Of a DNA stretch of 57,533 bases, positions 42,816-50,753 are shown one piece after another. The position numbers and the translations under genes are program-made. Under the pieces are notes generated by a model. That model saw nothing but the letters and a program-made list of their open reading frames with translations, did no database searches and was not told the DNA's origin. Each line of letters begins with the position of its first letter. Position 1 is the stretch's first letter. Source of the DNA: a virus (lineage: Duplodnaviria > Caudoviricetes); the IMG/VR virus record IMGVR_UViG_3300044724_006087, positions 1-57,533 of that record; one strand, 5' to 3'.

Positions 42816-45800
42816 ATGGGAAATCCTTTAAAAATTAAAGAAACAGTTGGTGGTACCTTTCTTGGTTTACAAGAAATGCAAACCACTGAGATGGACTATG
42901 CCGTCCATCAGATTCTAACTGAGTTCTCAACTTCACTAACCGGATCAGGTACTATCAATATAAATGGTGATGGTACATCAATGGGATCCTTTTCGGACAC
43001 CACAAGAACAGGATCAGTAGGCGATCACCCAGTCGACTCTACTGCATTCTCAACATCGACTTATACACTTAAGCAAAATTTAGAATCGGTCGCAGAAACA
43101 TCGATGATCAACCCATTGTTTCTTAATGACAGTGGTTATGCTGCAGAGCATAGTAATAACCTGAATAGTACTCTAATAAGTAGAGCATTATCTAACCTTG
43201 TATCCAACGGCCTTGGATCATATTATCTTTCTGAATCAAACCCCAACACAAGCCTTTATTCAGATAGTGGATATTCTATTTTAGATACTAACAAAGCAGG
43301 TACAACCACATTTAAGTTATGGAGAAAAACAACCGGTGTTTCTGCACCTTCTACTGTTCGTACAGCACAAATTTATAACAACAGTAGTATACAAGAAATG
43401 TCTGATGCAGACATCAAAACATTAGCAGCAAGACTACGTAACCAAATTGTAGCAACTGGAATAGGCCAGTATAAACTATCTGCATCAAATCCAGCTGGTG
43501 CTGGCGAGACATGGATCCAAGTTGGATCAACAGTTACAGATACTAGAAACACAGTATCACAACAAACATACAGTGCAACCTATGAAGGCGTGTTTAATAA
43601 AACATATGCTGGATTATATGAAGGCGTATACAATAAACAATACTTAGCTCAGTATGAAGGCTCATTTGATAAAAATTATACTAAAACTTACCTAGGACAA
43701 TACGAAGCAGTATATCAAAAAGCATATGTTGGTCAATATGGAACAACATTTATTGGCCATTACAATAAACAATACGAAGGTGTTTTTAATAAGCAATATG
43801 AAGGAGCTTTTGAAGGAGTATACACTGGAGTATATGTAAAACAATATCAAGGACAGTATGAAGGAAATTATTTAAAATCATACTTAGGACAGTATGGTCA
43901 ACAATTTGAAGGATCTTTTGATAAACAATATGAAGGGGTCTATGAAGGATATTTTAACGCAGTATATTCAAGACAATTTACAGGTGCTTATACAAAAACA
44001 TACCTAGGTCAATATGAAGGAACATTTGAAGGTGCTTTCAATAAACAATACGAAGGAGTTTTTGAAGGTTACTATAACAAAACATATGAAGGCGTTTATA
44101 CTGGAACATATGTAAAAACTTACTTAGGTGAATATCAAAAAGAATATTCTGGTGAGTATGTAAAAACATATACTGGTGTATATGTAAAACAATATGTTGG
44201 TCAATATGAGGACGTATACCTTAAAACTTATCTTGGCCAATATGATAACGTATATGAAGGTTCTTTTGATAAACAATATGAAGGTGTTTATACAGGACAG
44301 TATACAAAAACATACGTAGGTCAATATACAGGTCAATATACCAAATCATATGTAGGTCAATATGAAGGTCAGTTCGAAGGTGCTTTTGATAAACAATACG
44401 AAGGAATTTACGAAGGATACTATAATAAAGCATATGAAGGAAACTTCTTAGGTCAATACACTAAAGCATATGAAGGTTCTTTTACAAAACAATTTGAAGG
44501 TGCGTTTGAAGGAGTATATGCAGGAGTATATGTCAAACAATATATTGGCCAATACGAAGATGTATATTTAAAAACTTACGTTGGACAATATGGTAGACAA
44601 TTTGAAGGTGCTTTCGATAAACAATACGAAGGATCTTTTGAAGGTTACTATAACAAAACATATGAAGGAATTTATGTAGGCGTATATACAAAACAGTATA
44701 TGGGATTATATACTGGAACTTTCTTAGGACAATATGATAATATCTATGAAGGAACATTTGATAAAGCATACTTAGGAAATTATACTAAAACATATACAGG
44801 ACAATACAGTAGACAATTTGAAGGGGTCTTTACTAAACAGTACGAAGGCAACTATGTAAAGAGTTATGATGGTCAATATGAAGGATTGTTTACAGGTGAC
44901 TTTAGTGGTACTGCAGCATTTACAGGAGTGTATGCAGGAAACTACTCAGGAACATATACAAAAAATTATATAAAAACATACGCTGGATCATATGAAGGAA
45001 CATATGATGGTTCAAGAACCTACACAGGTCAATATGCTGCACAATACCAGAAAGCATATATTGGAAACTGGACAAAGACTTATCTAGGTCAGTACACAAA
45101 ACAATGGACCGGAACAAGAACTTATACAGGACAATACTCTCAAAATTTTGATAAAATTTATCTTGGTATAAACTACACAAGACAATACCTTAAACAATAT
45201 GCTGGCGAAAGAACCTACAATGCTCAATACACTGGCCAATATACAAAAACATATACCGGTGTTTATACTAAATCATATGTAGGTCAATACAGTCAACAGT
45301 TTGAAGGTGCTTTCAATAAACAGTACGAAGGAGTATTTGAAGGCTATTATACAAAAAATTATGAAGGAGTATATCTAGGAAATTACACCAAAGCATATGT
45401 TGGTCAATATGACAGACTGTTTATTAAAACATATATTGGAACGTATCAACAAGCGTATACTGGTAACTATACAAGACATTACCTAAAAGCATACACAGGA
45501 ATTTATTTAAGAAATTTCTTAAAACAATATGTTGGTCAATATACAAAACATTATACTAAAGCATATCAAAAAGCATATCAGAAACAGTGGACAGGTGTTT
45601 ATGAAAGAATCTATTCTGGCCAATATGCAACTAACTACTTAAAGGCATATCAGAAAGCATGGGTAGGTCAATATGACAGAGTATGGACTGGCGTATACAA
45701 TACAAACTATGCTAAGCAATATACTGGTAACTATGATAATCAATTTAGTGGAACCTATACTACAAACTACACTAAACAATATTCTACAAACTACTTACAA

Positions 45801-50753: not shown

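Follow-up and report, generated by a model that had tools for sequence, protein, structure and literature searches.

How do two stretches of one gene, kilobases apart and each built of short repeats, come to carry duplications of identical length? The question is raised by a 57.5-kb virus contig, IMG/VR record IMGVR_UViG_3300044724_006087 (57,533 nucleotides (nt); Caudoviricetes; completeness estimate 32%), which we call the window, and by one open reading frame (ORF) in it, 42816-50753 (+), which encodes a protein of 2645 amino acids (aa) followed by a stop codon. The source of this gene is an uncultured marine T4-like phage with a G+C content of ∼34%, and the protein, known here from genes alone, is presumed to be the host-binding tail fibre of a T4-like myovirus. 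We found that the fibre protein is built of two equal arms that mirror each other about a small central domain and that the insertions and deletions (indels) distinguishing its natural alleles come as equal pairs at mirror positions in the two arms.

Mirror symmetry and paired indels

The fibre protein begins with a globular N-terminal domain (N-domain) and continues through a left arm, a non-periodic central domain designated the tip, and a right arm to a short C-terminal tail (Table 2). In both arms every fourth residue is aromatic, the repeating tetrad being aromatic, x, G/K/T, x. In uninterrupted stretches the first position of the tetrad (a) is Y, F or W in 100% of cases, and the third position (c) is mostly G or K. 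The arms contain 12–13% Gly and 21–22% Tyr; proline is absent from both of them, and cysteine is absent from the whole fibre protein. Breaks in the period of 4 are limited to one cluster per arm, and each cluster holds one insertion of +1 and four of +2, three of the latter being G-[S/T/E]-R-T-Y bulge motifs.

The bulge motifs, the G or K type of the tetrads, and the internal repeats all mirror about a single axis, on which the left and right positions sum to 2875. The ends of the arms lie on this axis (252+2623 and 1385+1490), and the tip domain is located exactly at it. A scan of the whole protein that made no assumption about arms gave a single peak at i+j=2875 with a score of 0.72, compared with 0.46 for the runner-up. 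Of the 111 pairs of c positions that this axis brings together in the outer arms, 55 are G-G, 28 are K-K, and 6 are G-K, and the mutual information between residues also peaks at axis 2875 (z of 4.7 in the outer and 3.8 in the inner arms). When the starts of the bulge motifs were paired from the outside in, their sums were 2869, 2868, and 2869. A search of the gene for inverted repeats returned just one, of 20 nt at 80% identity, and no inverted symmetry at the level of DNA; the mirror is thus a property of the protein.

To compare natural alleles, we examined 35 loci found with the N-domain in virus and metagenome contigs. The ORF ran off the contig in 14 of them and was closed in 21, and three of the closed ORFs (L010, L023, and L036) end inside the repeats without the C-terminal motif described below. 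The other 18 represent 12 alleles as judged by length and ends, which together with the allele of the window make 13 alleles of 1839–3134 aa. An arm was measured from the first to the last periodic aromatic residue, and the tip was taken as the largest gap (the largest-gap rule); L042, which has no globular tip, was left out of this measurement. In the 12 alleles with a tip domain the arms span 803–1383 aa (Table 1). The absolute differences between left and right arms are 0, 0, 1, 3, 4, 4, 5, 7, 9, 24, 36, and 59 (median 4.5), and random re-pairing of the arms gave a mean difference of 177. The Pearson correlation of left with right arm length is 0.99, a value that describes the pattern and is not a probability, because the alleles share ancestry.

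Table 1. Spans of the left and right arms in the 12 alleles with a tip domain (residues)
Allele	Left arm	Right arm
Window	1133	1133
L015	1128	1069
L017	1101	1106
L019	1013	1013
L011	1042	1033
L024	971	968
L028	923	919
L004	871	895
L005	871	867
L006	1236	1235
L031	1376	1383
L034	839	803

The outer arms follow the same rule. Their left and right lengths are 444/444 in six alleles, 212/212 in five, and 80/80 in L042; in L006, where the last periodic aromatic residue of the right arm is absent, they are 212/204. The difference of 232 aa between the two common lengths equals two units of 116 aa in both arms, indicating that this unit is present either three times or once, alike in the two arms. The best axis shift lay within 0 to +16 of the geometric axis in 13 of 13 alleles (161 shifts tried), and the sums of bulge-motif starts were 2315, 2314, 2315, and 2315 in L005 and 3059, 3058, 3059, and 3059 in L006. 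A mirrored order was also seen in a distant library relative of 708 aa, P0056, which carries 7+7 bulge motifs with spacings of 20, 20, 22, 22, 22, and 26 on one side of a central 109 residues and 25, 22, 22, 22, 20, and 20 on the other. The positions of its paired motifs sum to 940 six times and to 941 once.

Indels between alleles were read from ordinary global protein alignments, which are blind to symmetry. The window allele and L015 are 81% identical and differ by 52 aa at 1009–1076 against 52 aa at 1805–1856 and by 16 aa at 1256–1299 against 16 aa at 1577–1592. The indels between L017 and L019 are 80 + 8 aa in the left arm and 80 + 8 aa in the right arm. Between L031 and L006 we found indels of 32/32 and 16/16 at exact mirror sites and a total of 140 aa per arm, and L028 and L005, which are 96% identical, differ by totals of 52 and 52 aa. 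All indels in the arms between alleles are multiples of 4 residues. An initial annotation of the window, made from its sequence, had proposed that fibre length evolves by compensated duplications at two sites kilobases apart and had named a comparison of alleles as the check; in this comparison the indels fall as equal pairs at mirror positions, which supports the proposal.

The same annotation had suggested strong selection for register. We therefore used a register test, which asks whether the mirror partner of a left-arm residue aligns with the mirror partner of its counterpart in the other allele. Between the window allele and L015, which are separated by indels of 68 aa, register was kept within 4 residues at 99% of 1037 positions, and between L017 and L019 (88 aa of indels) it was kept within 1 residue at 100% of 996 positions. 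Register within 4 residues was found at 97% of positions for L028 and L005 and at 91% for L011 and L024, and even with indels of 357 aa, as between L006 and L005, it was within 8 residues at 77% of positions. Distant pairs were noisier; for the window allele and L005 the value within 4 residues was 46%. Random placement of the right-arm indels equaled the observed register in 0.16% (window allele and L015) and 0.03% (L017 and L019) of 20,000 trials. Mirror partners thus keep mapping onto mirror partners between alleles, in agreement with selection for register.

Matched duplications in the window

The observation from which the initial annotation had started, that internal duplications come in matched pairs of identical length in the two arms, was reproduced in each of its three parts. 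A left block of 24 aa recurs at nt 45624 and 45864 (aa 937 and 1017), and its right partner recurs at 48291 and 48531 (aa 1826 and 1906), so that both pairs lie 240 nt apart; the exact run of the right copy is 68 nt, matching the ∼68 nt that had been claimed. A 50-nt string of the left arm occurs at 45717, 45801, and 45957 (gaps of 84 and 156), and a 16-nt string of the right arm occurs at 48241, 48397, and 48481 (gaps of 156 and 84). This reversal of the gap order is expected if the arms are mirror images of each other and would not arise from a parallel relation. Finally, the YVKQY.GQYEDVYLKT block is found at 44181 and 44529, and FNREYSGTWLKAYSKE is found at 49674 and 50022, the distance being 348 nt in both arms.

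A nucleotide self-dot-plot, which had been recommended as a further check, was made with 60-nt windows at an identity of at least 80% and gave 80 segments. The two 240-nt duplications rank first and second in the gene, surpassing all its other internal repeats in length and similarity, the left one covering 190 nt at 83% and the right one 167 nt at 86%. Two features go beyond the earlier description. The 348-nt repeats are not pairs of copies but three tandem copies per arm, and a 28-aa tandem forms a third matched pair that had been missed. The matched copies are equally diverged in the two arms; this holds for the 80-aa units, and likewise for the 116-aa units (Table 2). Identity between the 80-aa copies at the first, second, and third codon positions is 0.84, 0.80, and 0.65 in the left arm and 0.86, 0.81, and 0.60 in the right arm. 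Because third codon positions diverge most, these results indicate that the duplicated units are under purifying selection.

We also counted matched repeats by rule, requiring at least 70% identity over 24 aa, the same offset, and a span overlapping the mirror image. By these criteria, 33 of the 43 left-arm repeats of the window allele are matched in the right arm. Over 220 shifted axes the mean count was 5.1 and the maximum 29; the observed 33 is the best of three axes (0, +4, and +8), which slightly favours the observed count. The count reached or exceeded the maximum over the 220 shifted axes in 11 of 11 alleles, with ties in L024 and L028. Matched repeats (left/right) in other alleles were 28/28 and 24/24 in L028 and L005, 24/24 and 120/120 in L031, and 212/212, 216/216, and 120/120 in L006.

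Public sequencing runs were consulted in the form of Logan contigs of runs X1, X2, X3, and X7 over 43500–50700. The pieces listed match unique parts of this region with high identity; among them none spans the duplicated stretches, and copy number is neither confirmed nor refuted by them. The joints reported for these contigs, whose short sides of 21–37 nt fall in repetitive sequence, were left out of account.

Probable antiparallel pairing and its alternatives

On the strength of these sequence patterns, we consider it probable that the two arms pair antiparallel and in register and that local duplications, arising independently, are compensated under selection. The chain would leave the N-terminal attachment domain, run out along an arm of 1134 residues made of four-residue units, turn in the small tip domain, rich in Gly and Pro and probably the end that binds the receptor, and return along the second arm, which would lie antiparallel to the first at every level, so that the conserved C-terminal tail would end up beside the N-domain. 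Each level of the shaft would consist of one stretch of each arm, and the change of a block in one arm would shift everything distal to it out of register. Ordinary tandem duplications and deletions would be frequent in such repetitive DNA, always in multiples of four codons, and a length change would persist only if matched by one of the same size at the mirror position in the other arm. Selection would join two distinct events in the DNA, each of which copies sequence from its own surroundings, as in the compensatory evolution of an RNA stem; two events would be needed because the arms copy different local sequences. We infer the physical pairing of the arms, the place of the tip as the distal receptor-binding end, and the action of selection rather than of a coupled mutational mechanism. 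The fold of the shaft could be either extended ribbons or a joint solenoid. By our own arithmetic, full extension at about 0.33 nm per residue would give the shaft a length of roughly 370 nm, an estimate that is an upper bound because the shaft need not be fully extended.

The tip is the most divergent part of the protein. Between the window allele and L015 it is 40% identical, compared with at least 90% at both ends, and identity along the protein runs 90, 96, 90 ... 54, 40, 61 ... 92, 92, 100%. This symmetric rise of divergence toward the tip fits either a fast-evolving receptor-binding end or the exchange of a distal cassette. The tips of the window allele, L015, L017, L019, L011, and L024 are unrelated or barely related to one another, and the arms there are 60–90% identical; such tips are as expected of a receptor-binding module that is swapped or evolves fast. 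At 47049 of the window, one contig of run X3 carries a 12-nt in-frame insertion in the tip domain; because it has 24 other differences, this contig comes from a related strain.

The identical length of the matched copies and their near-identical divergence (76.2% vs 75.8%) could also be the product of a single coupled event that makes both changes, either a special recombination or template switch or the import, by double crossover in the conserved outer arms, of a balanced distal cassette made up of the inner left arm, the tip, and the inner right arm of another phage. The symmetric fall of identity from both ends toward the tip and the wholly different tips of otherwise similar alleles would suit such an event. 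However, what each arm has duplicated is local sequence of its own, and the inserted blocks differ between the arms. The sites lie ∼2.6 kb apart on the same strand, in a gene with the one imperfect inverted repeat mentioned above, and identity declines gradually, without visible break points. Import of a cassette would spread balanced alleles but leaves the origin of the matched tandem copies unexplained, and no mechanism is known to us by which two unrelated blocks of the same length would be copied at mirror positions. A coupled event is therefore unlikely, and for the concerted recombination route that the initial annotation had set beside selection we saw no sign in the gene.

Equal lengths could alternatively reflect the geometry of the whole fibre, if the arms were two half-fibres joined by a knee and did not pair. 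The T4 long tail fibre does consist of a proximal and a distal half that are similar in length, and the case for pairing is drawn from sequence evidence. A knee, however, needs equal totals at most. It does not call for bulge-motif sums that are constant within 1 residue, for the matching of G-G and K-K tetrads at a single axis, for indels that keep the mirror relation within 4 residues over the full arm, or for the reversed order of repeat spacings, and the conserved C-terminal tail fits a return to the N-domain. We consider unpaired half-fibres very improbable. Even less can be said for the idea that the duplicated blocks are artefacts of short-read assembly across repeats, which we hold to be extremely unlikely. 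The window and all alleles do come from metagenome assemblies, the ORFs of L010, L023, and L036 are truncated inside repeats, and an exact 84-nt difference between L004 and L005 is a typical assembly ambiguity. Yet the copies in the window are merely 76% identical over 240 nt and are easily resolved by assemblers, and random misassembly would unbalance the arms, whereas balanced arms and mirrored differences are seen in 12 alleles, each assembled separately.

Several observations weigh against antiparallel pairing maintained by compensation. The largest-gap rule puts L015 off by 59 and L034 by 36 residues, although L015 becomes 1069/1069 if its tip is set at aa 1320–1453. No clear axis emerged from the G/K scan of L042, L036, L013, or the 3347-aa relative encoded by phage C48C1 (Kyanoviridae; L001, OQ984149.1, 11983–22026), which has several globular inserts, and the largest-gap rule places the tip centre within 20 residues of the midpoint in just 7 of 25 long distant relatives, on which the rule fails because their centres are multi-part. 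The signals from mutual information and from the pair table are partly a by-product of the matched duplications and are not fully independent of them. The three 116-aa copies show no mirrored ranking of similarity: in both arms the closest pair is formed by the two N-terminal units, and the differences in similarity among the three are small. In L005 the two most recent duplications, both near-exact, measure 72 nt (left arm) and 84 nt (right arm), and their positions are not exact mirror images.

Structure prediction gave no model that confirms the pairing. Single-sequence AlphaFold2 models had a mean pLDDT of 29, and were uninformative, for a monomeric mini-hairpin of the window allele (aa 1290–1585) and of 44 for P0056, in which contacts between the arms are not readable. 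In the P0056 model both arms are short beta strands (pLDDT 55–76), and its weak fold matches, all with E>0.2, are beta-solenoid proteins, not extended ribbons; a Foldseek search of the PDB with this low-confidence model gave nothing at E≤0.001. A complex prediction with three copies of aa 1306–1569, run without controls, gave no answer (score 0.00) and is evidence neither way.

One pair of alleles departs from the rule of paired indels. L004 and L005 differ by 2 substitutions and one exact 84-nt unit in the right arm only, which gives L004 28 extra residues in one arm, and a single base differs in the 10 kb upstream. This difference reflects either a genuine unbalanced variant within one population or an error in counting a perfect repeat, which a short-read assembler could have made with this unit. 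It is the one candidate found for the unbalanced intermediates that the initial annotation had proposed to look for, and also the one case that bears on its suggestion of length tuning in the population, which it leaves undecided.

If paired arms kept in step by selection are taken as the basis, a bolder proposal can be made, which we regard as possible but rather doubtful: the shaft would be several hundred nm long and built level by level, its length would be quickly reset by paired changes in the copy number of 24-, 28-, 80-, and 116-residue units, the reach of the tip would be tuned, and one-arm variants such as L004 would be transient intermediates. A tuned tip reach, if true, would matter for the capture of very small, sparse marine hosts.

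The nearest structural precedent for a fold-back fibre is the needle of T4 gp37. In its crystal structure of 2010, the chain reportedly runs to the distal tip and back, which leaves both ends of the segment on the proximal side. If its arms pair, the present protein would resemble the gp37 needle in being a receptor-binding fibre with a there-and-back chain, and both genes lie in the fibre block of T4-like phages. The arms of the needle are tens of residues long and thus far shorter than the 1134 residues per arm found here; with paired arms it would greatly exceed in length any other fold-back fibre known to us. An aromatic tetrad of period 4 is foreign to gp37, and no sequence relation was seen in Pfam, or in the PDB with the N-domain. 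Seven iron atoms are coordinated along the gp37 needle (PMC6957217). Its iron sites are His-x-His, whereas the fibre protein has no HxH and just 8 histidines in its two arms combined.

Two other comparisons concern logic rather than relationship. The arms of SMC and Rad50 proteins are likewise long and intramolecular, with outgoing and returning halves around a distal domain, and PMC5344682 describes SMC arm length as being under selection, with natural sequences reflecting discrete allowed lengths. Those arms are alpha-helical coiled coils of cellular ATPases, whereas the present ones belong to a presumed virion fibre with a 4-residue, Gly/Thr/Tyr-rich repeat; a heptad-based alpha-helical coiled coil does not agree with the period of 4 or with the beta strands predicted for the arms of P0056. 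The comparison is an analogy of evolutionary logic. In RNA stems, as here, two distant stretches of one gene must match, and the pattern itself reveals the pairing, but the changes here are protein indels of 4 to 116 codons and not base substitutions.

A phage fibre with fold-back topology is already known in kind; the new element is that, over a series of natural alleles, indels obey a rule of mirrored pairing. If the arms pair, the protein would use a very simple four-residue code for a giant fold-back fibre, and the mirrored indels would serve as a free contact map, as covariation does for RNA. The locus would also be a natural experiment on selection that keeps two distant parts of a gene in step. 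Fibre length, and perhaps encounter radius, would be readable directly from metagenomes, and the shaft would offer a modular scaffold whose length is settable in 4-residue steps.

Gene features, neighbourhood, and wider family

The features of the fibre gene are collected in Table 2.

Table 2. Coordinates of the parts and tandem repeats of the fibre gene in the window
Feature	Residues (aa)	Position (nt)	Strand	Remarks
N-terminal globular domain	1-251	42816..43568	+	presumed proximal attachment end
Left (outgoing) arm	252-1385	43569..46970	+	period-4 tetrads
Left 116-aa (348-nt) unit, three tandem copies	320-667	43773..44816	+	pairwise nt identity 0.69, 0.64, 0.63
Left register-break cluster (GSRTY, GTRTY, GERTY)	696-801	44901..45218	+	motif starts aa 732, 766, 797
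Left 80-aa (240-nt) tandem duplication	926-1085	45591..46070	+	nt identity 76.2%; mirror span aa 1796-1949
Left 28-aa (84-nt) tandem	1188-1277	46377..46646	+	150 nt at 83%; mirror span aa 1598-1687
Non-periodic tip domain, 104 aa	1386-1489	46971..47282	+	G 18%, P 12%; presumed distal, receptor-binding end
Right (returning) arm	1490-2623	47283..50684	+	span and composition as left arm
Right 28-aa (84-nt) tandem	1584-1682	47565..47861	+	opposite left 28-aa tandem
Right 80-aa (240-nt) tandem duplication	1800-1959	48213..48692	+	nt identity 75.8%; opposite left one
Right register-break cluster	2070-2179	49023..49352	+	motif starts aa 2072, 2102, 2137
Right 116-aa (348-nt) unit, three tandem copies	2241-2588	49536..50579	+	pairwise nt identity 0.70, 0.62, 0.59
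C-terminal tail, 22 aa, and stop		50685..50753	+	ends ...KLWLRVA

The fibre gene lies downstream of baseplate and VrlC-like genes. Upstream ORFs match PHROGs of T4-type baseplate hub and wedge proteins (gp5-, gp6-, and gp7-like) and fibre PHROGs, and the ORF at 27934–34854 is 33% identical to VrlC of Sinorhizobium phage phiM7; because of these matches we place the gene in the fibre or "host recognition" block. In PMC7029224, a fibre block downstream of VrlC is the layout of pelagimyophages and cyanomyophages, and a G+C content of about 34% is given for these phages, which the window shares. The gp6-like wedge protein of the window is at most 39% identical to that of any named phage. Two more large fibre-like proteins (1278 and 1188 aa) are encoded immediately upstream of the fibre gene, at 35071–42810, and their C-termini match PHROGs of the long-tail-fibre distal subunit and of host specificity, indicating that the phage has several fibres. 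Downstream, at 50814–52843, three small ORFs of 178, 290, and 237 aa without a PHROG match follow; they may encode chaperones or fibre accessories. A similar trio of small ORFs, followed by a fibre-assembly gene, is present in phage C48C1.

Searches with the fibre protein gave few matches. No Pfam family was found at E≤1, and PHROG gave a single, weak match (E=5e-5), which was to a "head morphogenesis" family. Megablast with the fibre gene against the phage collection and tblastn with the tip domain gave no match, a homologous-protein search with residues 1–255 gave none among proteins of near length, and a profile search of the PDB with the N-domain alignment returned 0 matches. In the ESM Atlas, the first 330 aa had a best score of 0.80 to unnamed viral clusters, which is a lead only. 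Among the titles and abstracts listed by our literature searches, none describes such a fibre; genes of this type, or structural variants in them, may be included in the supplementary files of PMC7029224 and PMC12379486.

The N-domain is 58–93% identical over 255 aa to those of related loci, and that of a 2093-aa allele is 74% identical to that of the window. An N-domain profile (A1) matched 450 protein clusters at E≤1e-3 and 329 at E≤1e-10 among 1.84 billion representative proteins; most of the 450 are fragments. These 450 clusters indicate that the design is common in marine T4-like phages. A C-terminal end motif, (L/Y)(W/Y)xR(V/I/T)(A/S/G), is found in the window allele, which ends LWLRVA, in 18 of 21 closed related ORFs, and, in the wider family, in 25 of the 26 long representatives.

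Several relatives show features of their own. In the library protein P0004 (716 aa), a normal N-domain and the start of a left arm are followed by ∼190 last residues that look like an out-of-frame reading of repeats. The C48C1 relative carries Arg-rich period-4 repeats, and ∼73 of its residues occur in two exact copies, near aa 2008 and 2081, which could be a recent duplication or an assembly artefact. L036 (ORF from 1942, 1452 aa) has eight +2 bulges per arm at a spacing of 26 residues and, having no C-terminal motif, was probably truncated by a frameshift or an assembly error; the ORFs of L010 (654 aa) and L023 (277 aa) end inside repeats as well. L042 (ORF from 2494, 1839 aa) is built of K-rich tetrads (YTK[IV]W...) and lacks a globular tip; a pair of short inserts, GPTY[YF]GG[YF], lies at aa 781–797 and 1215–1232. 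Its outer bulges are mirrored, at 80, 6, 64, 6, and 20 from each end.

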